NCBI GenBank assembly: GCA_001783805.1 | Contig: MFNS01000001.1 | Span: 64,649 to 128,648 of the forward strand | From: Candidatus Levybacteria bacterium RIFCSPHIGHO2_01_FULL_40_16 | GTDB taxonomy: Bacteria; Patescibacteriota; Microgenomatia; Levybacterales; UBA12049 | Direction: 5' to 3' | DNA length: 64,000 bases | In this document: positions 9,861-63,465 of the stretch, one piece after another | How positions within the stretch are numbered: the stretch's first letter is position 1 | How the letters are laid out: each line of letters begins with the position of its first letter | Program-made: the position numbers and the translations under genes | Notes under the pieces: generated by a model | Told to the model about the DNA's origin: nothing | Databases searched by the model: none | Seen by the model: the letters and a program-made list of their open reading frames with translations, nothing else

Positions 9861-10922
9861 GTGAAATCATTCTACAGCGGAAAGAAAATCTTGGTTACCG
9901 GAGGAGCAGGATTCATAGGATCAGCGCTAATAGATGAATTAATTCGCCTTGGAGCAGAAACTACGATTGGAGATAACCTGTCTACGGGGAGTTTAAAAAA
10001 CGTCTTTCGAGTATGGAATAAGCATGGGTTTTTCTGCAAAAAAAACTCAAAAGGATACACGACAAATAATAAACATAAGCTTGTTCTCGTAGATTTTCAA
10101 GATTTTGAGAAAACGCGAGATCTTTTGAAAGGATATGAAATTGTGCTCCATCTGGCTGCCAATATTGGAGGAAGAGGATATATTGATACTCATCCGGGGG
10201 ATTGTTGTGAGGGATTCTCCGTTAATCAAAACGTAATAAAAGCTGCTCACTTGGCAAACGTTGATAGGATTCTTTTCGCATCGTCAGCCTGTGTATATCC
10301 CAACGACCTGCAAAAAAATTACGGTTCGGAATATCTCTTAAAAGAAGAGGACGCGATTAAAAATAACTGGGGCAATGCGGACAAAGAATATGGCTGGGCA
10401 AAACTAATGGGTGAAATTACTCTCCAGGGATACAATAAGCAATATGGGCTAAAAGGAGTTAGCACCCGATATGTTACGGCGTACGGCCCATGGGAAAATG
10501 ACACGCATGCAATTATTGCTTTAATTCGTAGGGCAGTGGAAAAGAACGATCCGTATGTTATCTGGGGAAGCGGAAAACAAGACAGGGATTTCACTTACGT
10601 TGACGACATCGTTTCAGGAACACTTGCGGCGTGCGAGAAAATTACTGATGCATCCAGCATAAATTTGGGAACAAGTGTACGTTATACGATGAGAGAATCC
10701 GTAGATATTATTTTCGATATTCTAAATTGGAAACCCAAAAAAATTGTTTGCGATAAAACTAAACCTGAAGGAGTTAAGACGAGAGCATTAGATATTAAAA
10801 GGGCAAAAAAAGTATTGAACTGGAAACCCAAATACACCTTGCGTATAGGGCTTGCTAAAACAATTGAATGGTTTTTGAAGGAAAAGCCCAGAACAGTAGA
10901 TCCCCTATTGAGACATGGATAA
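9861..10922 (+). CDS. NAD-dependent NDP-sugar epimerase/dehydratase
   Basis: ILVTGGAGFIGSAL Rossmann motif and SDR-extended fold. GTG start. Confidence 0.55.
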   Translation: MKSFYSGKKILVTGGAGFIGSALIDELIRLGAETTIGDNLSTGSLKNVFRVWNKHGFFCKKNSKGYTTNNKHKLVLVDFQDFEKTRDLLKGYEIVLHLAANIGGRGYIDTHPGDCCEGFSVNQNVIKAAHLANVDRILFASSACVYPNDLQKNYGSEYLLKEEDAIKNNWGNADKEYGWAKLMGEITLQGYNKQYGLKGVSTRYVTAYGPWENDTHAIIALIRRAVEKNDPYVIWGSGKQDRDFTYVDDIVSGTLAACEKITDASSINLGTSVRYTMRESVDIIFDILNWKPKKIVCDKTKPEGVKTRALDIKRAKKVLNWKPKYTLRIGLAKTIEWFLKEKPRTVDPLLRHG

Positions 10923-45617: not shown

Positions 45618-46292
45618 ATGTCTAATATGCCAGTAACGGAGATTGAAAAAAGCAATTATTATCTATTCGCAAAAAGAACAATGGATGTTATTTCTTCTAT
45701 ATTTTTGCTGATATTTTTTTCTCCAGCAATACTAATTATAGCCATAGCGATAAAGCTTGATTCAAAAGGGCCGGTTCTGGCAGATACACCAAAAAGAGTT
45801 GGAAAAGATGGAAAACTGTTCAAAATGTATAAATTCAGATCCATGGTGGAAAATGCCCATGAAATATTAAGGGAAAATCCTAAGTACTCAAATCTATATA
45901 ATGCTTACAAAAGAGGAAGTTATAAATTGAAAGATGATCCGCGCATTACCAGGGTTGGTCACTTCATACGCAAACATTCTTTGGATGAAATACCGCAAGC
46001 CCTGAATATCTTAAAAGGTGAAATGAGCCTGGTAGGTCCCCGGGCTTATTATCCTGATGAATTGCGCGATCAGCAAAAAAAATACCCCCACACGATTGAT
46101 TCTGTCAAGATTGTGCTTTCAGTCAAGCCCGGAGTCACCGGATTCTGGCAGGTTTCAGGTCGAAGCGAGATAAATTTCGATAAGCGTATTGAAATGGACG
46201 CATCTTATGTCAAAAAAAGATCTCTTCTTTATGACCTTTGGATTATTGCAAAGACCCCTTTGGCTATGGTTACAGGGCGCGGCGCCCTCTAG
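45618..46292 (+). CDS. small initiating phosphoglycosyl transferase (bacterial sugar transferase, PglC/WbaP C-domain type)
   Basis: One N-terminal TM plus ...PRITRVGHFIRKHSLDEIPQALNILKGEMSLVGPRA...GVTGFWQVSGR. Canonical bacterial sugar-transferase (PF02397-type) motifs. Confidence 0.75.
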   Translation: MSNMPVTEIEKSNYYLFAKRTMDVISSIFLLIFFSPAILIIAIAIKLDSKGPVLADTPKRVGKDGKLFKMYKFRSMVENAHEILRENPKYSNLYNAYKRGSYKLKDDPRITRVGHFIRKHSLDEIPQALNILKGEMSLVGPRAYYPDELRDQQKKYPHTIDSVKIVLSVKPGVTGFWQVSGRSEINFDKRIEMDASYVKKRSLLYDLWIIAKTPLAMVTGRGAL

Positions 46293-46303
46293 TCTATCTG
46301 CAG

Positions 46304-46344
46304 TTGACCCCGCTAAGCGGGGTTGACAGGATTGAGCTTTTTTG
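46304..46344 (+). terminator. GC-rich stem-loop (gaccccgc-taa-gcggggtt) followed by a T-run; possible terminator/attenuator between the phosphoglycosyl transferase and DUF4012 genes
   Basis: An 8-bp stem (one mismatch) with a 3-nt loop at 46306–46324. The T6 run starts about 12 nt downstream, so this is non-canonical. It overlaps a TTGACA hexamer. Confidence 0.3.
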
Positions 46345-52307: not shown

Positions 52308-52336
52308 TTGACATAGTCAATAAATCGTACCAAAAT
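52308..52336 (+). promoter_or_regulatory. candidate sigma70-like Pmra promoter (TTGACA-N17-CAAAAT)
   Basis: TTGACA at 52308–52313 with a weak -10 at 52331–52336. The predicted TSS falls in the first GTGGG box. Confidence 0.3.
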
Positions 52337-52340
52337 GGAA

Positions 52341-52370
52341 TAAAGTGGGTCAAAGTGGGAAAAGGTGGGA
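52341..52370 (+). promoter_or_regulatory. MraZ operator: three GTGGG direct repeats at exact 10-bp spacing
   Basis: AAAGTGGGTC AAAGTGGGAA AAGGTGGGAC (GTGGG at 52345, 52355 and 52365). This matches the known MraZ binding-site architecture upstream of mraZ. Confidence 0.65.
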
Positions 52371-52488
52371 CGGACTGAGCATTGCGAAGGAGTCCGCTTG
52401 CGAGCAGCAGCGAGACAAGGGCGGCATGCTCAACAGAAAGGCAGGCCCGCCTAAAATATAAAAAATTTTAGCGGCGGGTAAATTAAAA
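52371..52488 (+). promoter_or_regulatory. GC-rich structured 5' leader of mraZ (candidate cis-regulatory RNA)
   Basis: About 100 nt of locally high GC in a 35%-GC genome. Stems: ggact..agtcc and tgagcat..atgctca. A 12-bp hairpin, cccgcctaaaat[ataaaaa]attttagcggcggg, ends 18 nt before the mraZ ATG. Confidence 0.35.
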
Positions 52489-60509: not shown

Positions 60510-60947
60510 ATGAAAGTAATAATTGAGCAAGTTAAAACTTTTTCTCTCGGCTTAACTCAAGAGCTTAACAGCTTGTTGATCCAATTAAATCCCGATTCAA
60601 GAACACTTCTTGATGAGGATGTGAAAGAAACAATTGAAGAGTCATCAAATCATCTCCTTGTGGCAAAAGAACCGGTTAATCATAAAATAGTTGGCATGCT
60701 GACCCTTATCATCAACCGTATACCGTCGTGGAAAAAAGGTTGGATTGAGGATGTAGTTGTTGATAAAAAGTATAGGAATCAAGGAATTGCAACAGAGCTA
60801 ATCACTTATGCAATAGAAAATGCAAAAAACAATGGCGCTGTCTCGCTTAATTTGACTTCCCGTCCCGAAAGAGAAGATGCGAACAAACTTTATGGAAAAT
60901 TAGGTTTTAAGAAACGCGATACCAATGTATATAGGATGGAATTATGA
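60510..60947 (+). CDS. GNAT-family N-acetyltransferase (candidate glucosamine-phosphate N-acetyltransferase)
   Basis: 145-aa GNAT fold (...RNQGIATELITYAIENAKNNG...). Confidence 0.55.
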   Translation: MKVIIEQVKTFSLGLTQELNSLLIQLNPDSRTLLDEDVKETIEESSNHLLVAKEPVNHKIVGMLTLIINRIPSWKKGWIEDVVVDKKYRNQGIATELITYAIENAKNNGAVSLNLTSRPEREDANKLYGKLGFKKRDTNVYRMEL

Positions 60948-61609
60948 TGCAACAAAATAAACCTGTTGTGCTTTTCGATATCGACTATACGCTTTTCAAC
61001 AGAGATATATTTCTAGAATCCTTATTTGATTCGATTGGGAGTCTTTTTAAAATAGACAAGAAAGCAATGGCACAAATTGGCCAAACAGCTTATAAAGAAA
61101 CTGTTAATGAATTTAATCGCTTTAAGCCAAAAGAGTTTTCTTTAAAAGTTGCCAAAGCCTTAGGAAGAATACGGGGTTTACGAAAGATTGAAGATATAGC
61201 AATGGCAAAATATAATCGTCCGGAAAGCTTATATGAGGAGACTTTAGAGACTATTAGTGAGGTGTCCAGGATCGCAGTTATTGGCATTTTTTCAAAAGGA
61301 CATAAACAATTTCAGGTAAATAAGGTAAGAAAATTTAAGCATTTATTACACGTTGACCACGTGTATATGGGCGTTGACAAGTATAAAACGCTGCCAAAAA
61401 TTATTGATAAATATAAACAAACAAAACTGTATTTAATTGATGATTTGCTAGATATTCTTTATTTGGCAAAAAAATTAAAAAACGACATCGTAACGATTTG
61501 GGTAAAAAGAGGAATTTACGCTGCTTCGCAAGAACTTATTCCTGGATTTAAGCCCGATGCAATAATCACAAATATCTCCGATATAGTATCGATAATTAAA
61601 AATAATTAA
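60944..61609 (+). CDS. HAD-superfamily hydrolase / phosphomutase-like
   Basis: N-terminal DxDxT motif (FDIDYTLF) and the C-terminal DD motif LIDDLLD. Confidence 0.5.
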   Translation: MMQQNKPVVLFDIDYTLFNRDIFLESLFDSIGSLFKIDKKAMAQIGQTAYKETVNEFNRFKPKEFSLKVAKALGRIRGLRKIEDIAMAKYNRPESLYEETLETISEVSRIAVIGIFSKGHKQFQVNKVRKFKHLLHVDHVYMGVDKYKTLPKIIDKYKQTKLYLIDDLLDILYLAKKLKNDIVTIWVKRGIYAASQELIPGFKPDAIITNISDIVSIIKNN

Positions 61610-61611
61610 AT

Positions 61612-61701
61612 ATGTGTGGAATATTCGGAACGGACGATCGCGTAGCGAAGAGAGTTCACCTGCAAGTGAAACGGACAGGCGTGGGTGATTGTAAATAAAT
61701 T
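61612..61701 (+). promoter_or_regulatory. GC-rich element beginning with a synonymous duplicate of the glmS start (29-codon uORF MCGIFG...)
   Basis: atgtgtggaatattcgga... encodes MCGIFG, as does the glmS start atgtgtggcatatttggt. The rest is about 65 nt of GC-rich sequence ending TAA 4 nt before glmS. The uORF is in the same frame as glmS. Confidence 0.35.
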
Positions 61702-63465
61702 ATGTGTGGCATATTTGGTTACGTAGGACATGAGTCAAAGGCGGCGGAGATTGTCCTGGAAGGACTAAAACTTCTGGAGTACAGAGGTTATGATTCTTGG
61801 GGAATCGCTGTCAAGCAGGGAAAGAAATTGGTTTTTGAAAAACATGTTGGGAAAATAGGAGATGCGAAAATAAATTTACCCCAAAGTTCTTTAGGTATCG
61901 GGCACACCAGGTGGGCAACTCATGGCGGTGTGACGGAAAAAAATTCCCATCCTCATTTGGATTGCACAAAAACAATCGCAGTTGTTCACAACGGAATTGT
62001 AGAGAACTTTCAGGAGTTAAAAACAGAGCTAATTAAAAAAGGACATAAGTTTATTTCGGAAACCGACACAGAGGCAATCCCGCATTTGGTTGAAGAAAAT
62101 CTCAAACGTGAGGGATTTTCTTCATCAGTCAGGGATGCATTTAATTTATTGAAAGGACTTAATGCGGTTGTAATTGCCAACGCCGTATCCAAAGAAATTG
62201 TGGCTGCCAAAACCGGCTCACCTCTGGTGGTGGGCATTGGAAATAAAGAATTATTTGTCGCCTCCGACTTCTGCGCGATTGTAAAGCATACCAACAAAGT
62301 TATTTTTCTGGAAGACAAACAAATGGTCATTCTGGGAGAAAAATTAAAGCTTATCAGTCTGCCCGGAGGGGTAGAAATACAGCCGAACATTCAAACTTTG
62401 GATTGGAAATTTGCAGAAACGGAAAAAGGAAAGTACAAACATTTCTTGCTGAAAGAAATTCATGAACAGCCAAAAGTCATCGAAAACATCGCGCTTAATT
62501 ACACTACGGAAATTAACCATTTAGCGAAGTTAATTGACCAGGCCTTTGGAACTTTTATGTTGGGATGTGGTACCGCTTCATATTCGGCATTGGCGGGAAC
62601 TTATCTTTTCTCAAGAATTGCCAAAAAACACGTTAATTTTTCCATTGGTTCGGAATTTAATTATTTGGAGGATTATTTAACTGAAAGAAGTCTGGTAATT
62701 GCAATTTCTCAATCCGGTGAGACGATTGATGTGGTTGACCCGGTTGTTCAGGCCAAAAAGAAAGGCTCCAAAATCGTGGCAATTGTCAATATGCTGGGAT
62801 CAACACTTTATCGGCAAGCCGACTTTAAAATTTTGCTTGGAGCCGGTCAAGAAAAAGCCGTGATCGCCACGAAATCCTTTATCGCCATGATCTCTGTTTT
62901 AATTCTTGCGGCTTATTCTTTGGCGAAAAGACAAATAGCTGGCAAGAGTCTCCTTTTGAAAGCGGCAAAAAATGTGCAGGAAATTCTGCAGGAAGAATTC
63001 GAAAAAAGTTTGCAAAAAGTAGCGGGTGAATTAAGAAATAAAGAACACATTTATATTATCGGACGCGGATTATCTTATGCTTCGGCAATGGAGGCAACTT
63101 TGAAAATCAAAGAAACCGCCTGTCTGCACGCGGAGGGCTTTGCGGGAGGAGAATTAAAGCACGGCGTGATTGCGCTCATAGAAAAAGGAACGCCCTGCAT
63201 TGTTTTTGCCCCAAACGATGAAACCTATGACGATATCGTCTCCAATGCTCAGGAAATCAAAGCGCGGGGCGGATTTATCATTGGCATCGGACCCAAAAAC
63301 AACAACGTTTTTGACCGGTTTTTACCAACATCCGATGTGGGAGACGCGACAATTATTCCGCAAGTGGTAATTTCCCAGCTGCTGGCTTATTATTTGGCGC
63401 TAAAACGCGGCATTAAAGATCCGGACAAGCCCCGCAACCTCGCCAAATCAGTAACTGTAAAATAG
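61702..63465 (+). CDS. glmS: glutamine--fructose-6-phosphate aminotransferase
   Basis: MCGIFGYVG Ntn start, two SIS domains, and ends ...KSVTVK. 587 aa. Confidence 0.85.
   Translation: MCGIFGYVGHESKAAEIVLEGLKLLEYRGYDSWGIAVKQGKKLVFEKHVGKIGDAKINLPQSSLGIGHTRWATHGGVTEKNSHPHLDCTKTIAVVHNGIVENFQELKTELIKKGHKFISETDTEAIPHLVEENLKREGFSSSVRDAFNLLKGLNAVVIANAVSKEIVAAKTGSPLVVGIGNKELFVASDFCAIVKHTNKVIFLEDKQMVILGEKLKLISLPGGVEIQPNIQTLDWKFAETEKGKYKHFLLKEIHEQPKVIENIALNYTTEINHLAKLIDQAFGTFMLGCGTASYSALAGTYLFSRIAKKHVNFSIGSEFNYLEDYLTERSLVIAISQSGETIDVVDPVVQAKKKGSKIVAIVNMLGSTLYRQADFKILLGAGQEKAVIATKSFIAMISVLILAAYSLAKRQIAGKSLLLKAAKNVQEILQEEFEKSLQKVAGELRNKEHIYIIGRGLSYASAMEATLKIKETACLHAEGFAGGELKHGVIALIEKGTPCIVFAPNDETYDDIVSNAQEIKARGGFIIGIGPKNNNVFDRFLPTSDVGDATIIPQVVISQLLAYYLALKRGIKDPDKPRNLAKSVTVK

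Follow-up and report, generated by a model that had tools for sequence, protein, structure and literature searches.

Introduction

The subject of this report is a small structured element immediately upstream of glmS in a 64,000-nt stretch of contig MFNS01000001.1 of Candidatus Levybacteria bacterium RIFCSPHIGHO2_01_FULL_40_16 (the window; coordinates given without a locus name refer to it). glmS occupies 61702-63465 on the + strand and encodes a protein of 587 amino acids with a glutamine amidotransferase (GATase) domain and two SIS domains; its true start, ATGTGTGGCATATTTGGT, lies at 61702-61719. An upstream HAD-like open reading frame (ORF; 60944-61609, +), whose product matches HAD_2 in Pfam only below the cut-off, ends with a TAA at 61607-61609. 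Between the two ORFs lie a second copy of the glmS start, here called the decoy, and a GC-rich segment that contains the body of the element. glmS is a classic target of RNA control, exerted by a ribozyme in Firmicutes and by decoy small RNAs in Enterobacteria. To our knowledge, gene regulation is almost unstudied in the candidate phyla radiation (CPR)/Patescibacteria, which have few protein regulators. The original prediction, made from the letters of the window, named a vestige of a class-II amidotransferase gene, a regulatory leader peptide, and an inserted structured RNA as possible explanations of the segment. In this study, the last of these was supported: the segment belongs to a family of two-hairpin elements with covarying helices, and the junction is empty in the close relatives examined.

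Materials and methods

The glmS loci of 80 species representatives were retrieved, and their upstream sequences were compared. A metagenome scan for the decoy followed by RCGGA added three loci (L096, L103, and L112), plus the window strain. Since the search pattern forced an intact decoy, these three loci were unusable for the test of decoy conservation. The nine copies of the element were aligned under the guidance of a covariance model; this alignment was adopted because the MAFFT version misaligned the 5' ends and the L112 copy.

Results

The start of glmS is duplicated across a GC-rich segment

The decoy is an 18-nt copy of the glmS start (MCGIFG), ATGTGTGGAATATTCGGA, at 61612-61629 (+), and its ATG follows the stop of the HAD-like ORF by 2 nt. 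It differs from the true start at three positions (9, 15, and 18), all of them third-codon positions and all synonymous; the copy and its differences had been described in the original prediction, and both coordinates and sequence were confirmed, as was the GC-rich stretch between the copies. The intervening 62 nt have a GC content of 0.57, against a window mean of 0.358, and only 0.3% of 63-nt windows are as GC-rich. No exact or near repeat of this stretch was found elsewhere in the window. An 18-mer match with at most three mismatches is expected 0.07 times by chance in the whole window, both strands included, and no shuffled sequence gave two. An assembly artefact was excluded because seven independent assemblies of the same strain agree exactly at the decoy/glmS junction. 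The 2-nt spacing between the HAD-like stop and the decoy ATG equals the spacing to the real glmS ATG in element-free relatives, which places the decoy at the ancestral start position.

An upstream ORF (uORF) begins at the decoy ATG (61612-61698, +; peptide MCGIFGTDDRVAKRVHLQVKRTGVGDCK) and traverses the entire structured core. It is in frame with glmS, as predicted from the sequence, and measures 28 codons plus a TAA (61696-61698) that ends 3 nt 5' of the true ATG. The last nucleotides before glmS form an AU-rich spacer, TAAATAAATT (61692-61701, +), with stops in two frames (61692-61694 and 61696-61698). The resemblance of this AU-rich spacer to the stop/ATG junction of element-free genomes suggests that it is probably part of the duplication. 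Across loci, the AU-rich UAAAUAA-NNU before the true ATG likewise looks like the ancestral stop/ATG junction.

The segment folds into two abutting hairpins

The two-hairpin core of the glmS copy (61627-61689, +) scored 58.1 and 61.3 bits with covariance models R1 and R2, respectively. Hairpin 1 (61628-61657) is closed by the stem P1 (GAAC 61628-61631/GUUC 61654-61657), whose 5' strand takes its first half, G61628 and A61629, from the decoy. An invariant purine loop (G-GA 61632-61634 and GA 61652-61653) surrounds an inner stem (UCGC 61638-61641/GCGA 61645-61648) with a GUA loop. A single linker base, A61658, separates hairpin 1 from hairpin 2 (61659-61679), in which P2 (CCUG 61659-61662/CAGG 61676-61679) encloses a mini-hairpin (GU 61666-61667/AC 61671-61672) with a GAA loop. 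A purine-rich tail, CGTGGGTGATTG (61680-61691; family consensus SGWGGRRG), follows at 13-16 nt from the glmS ATG. All these features are on the + strand.

Nine copies of the element, each of 55-70 nt, were found. Hairpin 1 of the family consists of P1 (GRRC/GYYC), the purine loop G-GA...GA, and a variable stem with a GAA/AAA/GNA-type loop. P1 occurs as GAAC/GUUC (window glmS, L096, L103, and L112), as GGAC/GUCC (window mraZ, L034, and L042b), and as GAGC/GCUC (L042a and L133), so that two pairs covary independently. The first two bases of its 5' strand are host sequence, namely GR of decoy codon 6 at glmS or bases of the third MraZ box at mraZ. Within P1 there is an invariant bulged G, and then GA facing GA (GG in L133). 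The P1a stem has a different sequence in each copy, frequently with tandem G-A pairs. Hairpin 2 follows after 0-1 linker bases and is defined by P2 (CYUG/CARG), with covarying C-G/U-A; its mini-hairpin is optional, being absent from L112 and extended to 6-7 bp in L034 and L042b.

The fold is supported by several comparisons. When the copies were folded independently, the same two adjacent hairpins were obtained in eight of nine. In the model-guided alignment, 86% of the cells are paired, versus 27-40% with slid partners, and the covariation score is 0.441, versus 0.04-0.11 for controls; none of 500 shuffles reached 0.441. Changes on both sides were seen in 11 of 16 pairs, including all six P1a pairs; pairing is complete (100%) in P1 and P2, where compensatory exchanges between AU and GC occur. 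A first P1 register, CGGA/UYCG, had no compensatory support and was replaced by GRRC/GYYC. The copies share a pairwise identity of 48-85%, yet the fold and the unpaired G-GA/GA are retained; the lowest value (48%) is that between the two copies of the window itself. This divergence points to an old family under structural constraint and argues against recent intragenomic duplication. The predicted hairpins have stabilities of -10 to -28 kcal/mol, and four copies fold no better than shuffled sequences by nearest-neighbour energies (z 0.3 to -1.2). G-U pairs and tandem G-A pairs occur within the helices, and every one of the nine copies runs in the direction of the gene that follows it (six at glmS starts, two in mraZ leaders, and the tandem unit of L042); together these suggest a sense-strand RNA.

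The element is a structured family with compensatory changes that is absent from Rfam. The glmS region (61400-61900) had no match in Rfam 15 at E<=10, the mraZ copy described below had none at permissive E-values, and at the gathering score nothing relevant was found in the window or in six related loci. The glmS ribozyme (RF00234) gave no covariance-model match and is excluded as far as such a model can do so, in keeping with the failure to recognise its consensus in the original prediction. The region had also been judged unlike a tRNA; ARAGORN found no tRNA or tmRNA in the window. No account of the motif was found in Rfam or in the searchable literature; it represents a new family within the leader RNAs or small structured inserts.

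A second copy lies in the mraZ leader

The original prediction contained neither a second copy of the core nor a role for decoy bases in the fold; both were found here. The second core copy (52367-52429, +; 59.3 bits with R1 and 66.3 bits with R2) was detected only by a degenerate motif search and lies in the mraZ 5' leader, which is 277 nt long in the window. Its P1 pairs GGAC 52368-52371, made of box-3 bases, with GUCC 52392-52395 (+). The leader contains a conserved mraZ promoter, TTGACA-17-CAAAAT (52308-52336), followed by three MraZ boxes, AAAGTGGG, AAAGTGGG, and AAGGTGGG, with a 10-nt period; promoter and boxes together span 52308-52369, and the element stands directly 3' of the third box, about 25 nt from the predicted transcription start. 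The boxes match the MraZ operator of Mollicutes, which consists of repeats of AAAGTG[T/G] (PMC8475190). The same layout of promoter and boxes was seen in seven other Levybacteria mraZ leaders. No copy of the start codon accompanies the mraZ element. The purine-rich tail is present in the mraZ copies as well, 45-60 nt from the mraZ start. The decoy was considered as a cryptic MraZ operator and set aside, since it offers only GTGG/TTGG cores with 9-nt spacing.

L133 is the second lineage with a copy in the mraZ leader, found through a MraZ ORF call that extended through the translated element; six other mraZ leaders are without it. The element-free mraZ leader of L141 has the unusual CCCGCC/GGCGGG hairpin of the window, which identifies the window mraZ core as a clean insertion, about 65 nt in size, that left the target unduplicated. 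A single conserved cluster, with all genes on one strand, opens with mraZ and closes with glmS, in the order mraZ-mraW-ftsL-PBP (penicillin-binding protein)-mur...-murA-glmU-(GNAT)-HAD-glmS. The element is strictly associated with two leaders of one cell-wall cluster, and at glmS it always comes with a duplicated start that contributes to P1.

Other structures were noted in mraZ leaders. A hairpin, CCCGCCTAAAAT...ATTTTAGCGGCGGG, lies at 52446-52478, just 5' of the mraZ ATG; in L141 the same mraZ-proximal stem encloses another loop, of about 55 nt, and the hairpin is missing from other relatives. It may represent a further insertion-prone or start-proximal structure. In several Levybacteria, MraZ box 3 is followed by a small hairpin insert of another kind, CACTTCGCTTCGCTCAGTG or a variant of it, as in L132 (about 9925-9960); it was also seen in N-terminal extensions of the MraZ calls P0053, P0027, P0019, and P0111. 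More than one family of small structured inserts has thus accumulated at the leader site after MraZ box 3.

Distribution among relatives

Carriers at the glmS junction are six scattered lineages (the window, L034, L042, L096, L103, and L112). The closest representatives, L007, L008, and L009 (81-87% GlmS identity), have the stop of the upstream gene 2-10 nt 5' of the glmS ATG and no insert, and the site is also empty in L136, L137, and L138 (87-89% GlmS identity to the window) and in L139, a 90% identical relative of L103. The arrangement in the window is an insertion relative to all close relatives examined. At about 60% identity, L034 and L042 have start copies, ATGTGTGGAATATTTGGG and ATGTATGGAATTTTTGGA, joined to a GC-rich segment whose first bases are (A/G)CGGA and in which the window's blocks GAGYYCRCYTGC and ACARGSG recur. 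L042 carries two dissimilar units in tandem, and L103 has a perfect 28-nt direct repeat flanking the element. The carriers are dispersed over the GlmS tree, and every one has nearer relatives that lack the element. The empty sites of the close relatives examined and the perfect repeat in L103 indicate that the element comes and goes.

The original prediction had allowed that the element, if missing from related genomes, might be a neutral duplication remnant. Its absence from close relatives agrees with that part, but distant relatives keep the same junction with covarying helices, and a neutral remnant was rejected on this ground.

Direct repeats at the glmS site are 17-28 nt long, whereas none is present at the mraZ site when compared with the empty site in L141. 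No terminal inverted repeats were found; the ends, (A/G)CGGA... and ...SGWGGRRG, are not inverted repeats of each other. Judged from these junctions, the simplest history would be that about 60 nt were inserted behind codon 6 and that 17-28 nt were duplicated in the process, and an equivalent one would be the import of a start-bearing cassette by recombination. An imported 5' segment of glmS was also considered: the first 90 nt of the gene are only marginally more diverged from relatives than the gene overall (0.70-0.77 vs about 0.80), and the decoy is only slightly nearer to orthologous starts than the true start is (16 vs 21 differences).

With filters off, the covariance models matched exactly two sites in the window. 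In about 1 Mb of Levybacteria/Microgenomates sequence, six lineages gave matches at the start of glmS and two gave matches just behind the MraZ operator; there were no others, and no further copies were present in the flanks of the carrier genomes. Eight matches of the core pattern in viral contigs were all due to chance, in unrelated and mostly GC-rich sequence, with 13 bits or less. N-terminally extended GlmS calls, which might have led to more copies, do not occur; the length variants are internal inserts. Among Levybacteria GlmS proteins, P0155, P0161, P0162, P0165, P0173, P0186, P0207, and P0218 have 598-609 amino acids, and these long proteins have a Lys/Ser-rich insert at about residues 38-55 in the amidotransferase domain (e.g., IKNSESKIKNYF).

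Decoy, uORF, and translation context

At every glmS-linked locus, the stop of the upstream gene lies 1-16 nt 5' of the decoy ATG. In the three unbiased loci, decoy and true start differ at 3, 1, and 2 positions, and five of these six differences are synonymous. The pattern is suggestive of constraint; descent of both copies from starts that worked, or a recent event, would also produce it. A uORF beginning with M-C/Y-G-I-F-G is present at all six glmS-linked loci, with lengths of 10, 11, 24, 26, 26, and 28 codons, and both residues and frames diverge after about codon 8. In the window, L096, L103, and L112, its stop is located 3-7 nt 5' of the true ATG.

No Shine-Dalgarno motif was found within 25 nt of the start in 45 of the window's 51 longest ORFs. 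This makes it probable that the GGAGG/GGUGA-like tail of the element is no ribosome-binding site, and its use as the Shine-Dalgarno site of glmS was considered unlikely on account of its spacing as well. Gene starts in the window have AU-rich sequence upstream and often abut the preceding stop codon. A helix between decoy and true start, possible through the self-complementary AAUAUU/AAUU and UGUGUG, appeared in four of six minimum-energy folds. This long-range helix was not accepted, as the duplex energies are weak (z -0.2 to -2.4). Terminator scans found no terminator at the element.

Discussion

We tentatively prefer the reading that the element is an inserted cis-acting leader RNA whose fold gates glmS translation, via a putative trans-factor; we regard it as possible, and it is drawn from comparison of the copies and their contexts. 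Two features expected of a leader RNA were found, namely a conserved secondary structure with compensatory changes, and a constant orientation and position in the 5' leaders of functionally related genes. In the proposed mechanism, ribosomes finishing the upstream gene would restart at the decoy AUG. Because decoy positions +17 to +20 are the P1 5' strand, translating ribosomes would melt both hairpins, terminate at the UAA 3-7 nt before the true AUG, and be handed to glmS. A putative trans-factor holding the fold shut would reduce both this relay and direct initiation beside the structure; for this role, a protein reading the invariant purine loops would be likelier than a metabolite. Through the mraZ-leader copy, one signal would control the first and last units of the cell-division/UDP-GlcNAc (uridine diphosphate N-acetylglucosamine) cluster. 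The decoy may be mainly a historical by-product of insertion into the first codons of an essential gene, kept for its P1 strand and as the start of the uORF.

Several points weigh against this leader RNA. The uORFs of L034 and L042 end after 10-11 codons, inside hairpin 1, which means that the relay is not universal, and the L042 decoy carries Cys2Tyr. The mechanism does not apply unchanged at mraZ, where the element is 45-60 nt from the start and has no uORF. An expression platform was not found: the terminator scans were negative, and the pairing of decoy with true start is weak and varies between loci. The distribution is patchy as well: every carrier has nearer relatives that lack the element, a pattern more usual for mobile or dispensable DNA than for a core regulator. 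The sample is small (n=9 copies, eight lineages), and three of the glmS-linked copies were ascertained with a pattern that forced an intact decoy. The alignment used for covariation was fitted to the model, but P1 and P2 stand in unambiguous conserved blocks. A bolder version, namely a new class of cis-acting sensor RNA (a riboswitch, a ribozyme, or the target of a dedicated RNA-binding regulator) that ties both cluster ends to precursor supply and was spread by an undescribed insertion homing to the universally conserved MCGIFG start and regenerating it through the 17-28-nt duplication, is considered unlikely.

The main rival is a small insertion, selfish or neutral, that does not regulate anything and resembles miniature inverted-repeat transposable elements (MITEs), repetitive extragenic palindromic (REP) elements, or mitochondrial GC clusters. 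Under this explanation, which we judge rather unlikely, the element would spread among genomes or sites and be tolerated in leaders, the decoy would be a plain target-site duplication, still young in each lineage, and the insertion would survive at glmS only because duplication of the junction and the first 17-28 nt restored the start. Presence and absence vary among relatives at 81-91% GlmS identity, with carriers scattered on the GlmS tree. The perfect repeat of L103 faces an empty site in L139, L042 has its dissimilar tandem units, and other GC-rich inserts (the L132-type hairpin and an unrelated L027 insert described below) occur in the same leaders of relatives. Subtypes, moreover, ignore host and site, the window mraZ copy being closest to the glmS copies of L034 and L112. 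Set against this, terminal inverted repeats are missing, the mraZ site has no target duplication, and the 64 kb contain only two copies, with an identity of 48%, although numerous copies of nearly the same sequence would be expected of a mobile repeat. The single orientation of all nine copies also speaks against it, and the compensatory changes together with the invariant unpaired purines imply that purifying selection has long acted on a sense-strand fold. Only import by homologous recombination would explain why the element recurs at exactly two sites. Import by this route is plausible because some Patescibacteria are described as naturally competent in a review (PMC11665869). The cluster context would also suit a metabolite riboswitch or small self-cleaving ribozyme for cell-wall precursors (e.g., glucosamine-6-phosphate, UDP-GlcNAc, or glutamine), a CPR analogue of the glmS ribozyme, since the leaders of glmS and of the mraZ/mur cluster serve genes that consume or produce the same precursors. 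The length of 55-70 nt, the conserved junction bases, the variable peripheral stems, and the tandem arrangement in L042 fit small aptamers or ribozymes. It would have to be a new class, as no Rfam family matches, and we hold it improbable: neither a pseudoknot nor an obvious binding pocket was found, there is no conserved terminator or start-sequestering pairing (that between decoy and true start being weak), and most Levybacteria manage without the element.

Less probable still is a module for mRNA processing or stability, in which the hairpins would protect the mraZ 5' end and, after cleavage in the AU-rich decoy region, a glmS-only transcript, so that the last gene of the operon would gain its own half-life. 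The short distance of about 25 nt from the predicted mraZ transcription start, the AU-rich unstructured stretch ahead of the glmS copy, and the stability of the hairpins (-10 to -28 kcal/mol) are in its favour, but a generic stabiliser needs no invariant unpaired purines, specific P1 register, or decoy, and four copies fold no better than shuffled sequence (z 0.3 to -1.2). A function of the uORF peptide itself appears very improbable, whether it is taken for a leader peptide or for what is left of a second class-II (MCGI...) amidotransferase gene. Both forms had been offered in the original prediction, and neither was supported. The M-C/Y-G-I-F-G start at all six glmS-linked loci and the five of six synonymous differences would suit a peptide, and a uORF is always present at these loci; the uORFs, however, range from 10 to 28 codons and diverge in sequence and frame beyond about codon 8, whereas conservation of the nucleotides follows the helices. 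Only the six duplicated codons are coding-like, there is no amidotransferase similarity beyond the duplicated 18 nt, L042 has Cys2Tyr, the mraZ copies have no uORF, and the synonymous pattern is also expected from descent of functional starts or from recent duplication. We give the least credence, close to none, to a translational bypass of the T4 gene 60 type, with take-off at the decoy Gly6 (GGA) and landing on Gly6 of the second copy. Matching Gly codons do flank a structured gap of 60-135 nt that contains a purine-rich, Shine-Dalgarno-like tract, and GGA is the take-off codon at five of six loci. The landing copy, however, has its own AUG with an in-frame or near stop upstream, the take-off codon is followed by ACG/GCG rather than a stop, and the gap exceeds that of gene 60, which is 50 nt. 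At four of six loci the take-off codon is not the same as the landing codon, and the L042 decoy has Tyr at the position of the catalytic Cys. Gene 60 bypass requires a nascent-peptide signal, for which a chain of only 6 residues is too short.

Several known systems resemble the element in part. Like the glmS ribozyme (RF00234) of Firmicutes and relatives, it is a structured sense-strand RNA directly 5' of glmS and could plausibly link GlmS synthesis to the supply of cell-wall precursors; the ribozyme, however, is about 170 nt long with a double-pseudoknot core, whereas the element, at about 60 nt, consists of two simple hairpins, overlaps a uORF, occurs also in mraZ leaders, and is patchy. In the GlmY/GlmZ-RapZ system of Enterobacteria, trans-acting small RNAs of about 150-200 nt pair with the glmS leader. 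Post-transcriptional control of glmS by hairpin-rich RNAs and decoy mimicry are common to both, control by the element being a proposal, but the element acts in cis in that proposal and its 'mimic' is a copy of the start-codon region. MITEs, REP elements, Rickettsia palindromic elements, and mitochondrial GC clusters are short, hairpin-forming, and GC-rich relative to their hosts; as with the element, they are variable among close relatives and tolerated in or beside genes. Unlike these sequences, the element lacks terminal inverted repeats; its copies are very few, divergent, of one orientation, and confined to two contexts, and its start-regenerating duplication of 17-28 nt is far longer than the usual target duplications of transposases. 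Termination-reinitiation coupling at uORFs also involves a short ORF running from an upstream stop and ending 3-7 nt before the main start (four of six loci here), and ribosomes translating the uORF must unwind the structure. Here, in contrast, the uORF opens with a copy of the first six codons of the main ORF and ends early in two lineages, and the element also occurs without a uORF. Phage HK022 put and Bacillus EAR are two-stem-loop leader RNAs that act in cis in processive antitermination. The element shares with them a length of about 65-70 nt, two stem-loops 0-1 nt apart, the sense strand, and a place within or ahead of a long polysaccharide or cell-envelope operon; it differs in having no Rfam match and no identified downstream terminators, and the likeness is one of description only.

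The element may be an unrecognised control or mobile RNA module. If the leader-RNA reading is true, a covariation-supported fold that recurs in these two leaders would add a third RNA solution to precursor control, independent of the other two, and a regulatory element would offer a handle for inducible expression in CPR/Patescibacteria. Whatever the function, the start-regenerating arrangement at glmS is unusual, and repeated occupation of the first codons of an essential gene with duplication of the start is an unusual mode of insertion, whose mechanism is not covered by known transposition chemistry. We know of no transposase or other mechanism that gives 17-28-nt duplications for a 60-nt element. 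Such insertions also create annotation traps in the form of false and split starts.

Additional observations

The gene 5' of glmS in the window encodes 221 amino acids; the gene at the same position in the closest relatives, L136-L138, encodes 158-162 amino acids and has no Pfam hit. In L027, the HAD-like gene and glmS are separated by another palindromic, GC-rich insert, ATGCTGAAACCCGCTTCGCAGAAGCTTCAGCGAGGCGAGTAAATTCAGCAT (about 2915-2975), and the glmS start is not duplicated there. In the metagenome contigs L088 and L090 (Ga0326597_10003983 and Ga0214472_10001321), arrays of tandem 22-nt repeats, ATGTGCGGAATGTTTGGTGCGA and variants, matched the decoy pattern and are unrelated to glmS. Two GC-rich hairpins, AGGGCGCGGCGCCCT and ACCCCGCTAAGCGGGGT, are located at 46268-46325 of the window, at and after the end of the gene at 45618-46292; they are among the GC-richest spots of the window and may be a terminator or another small insert.

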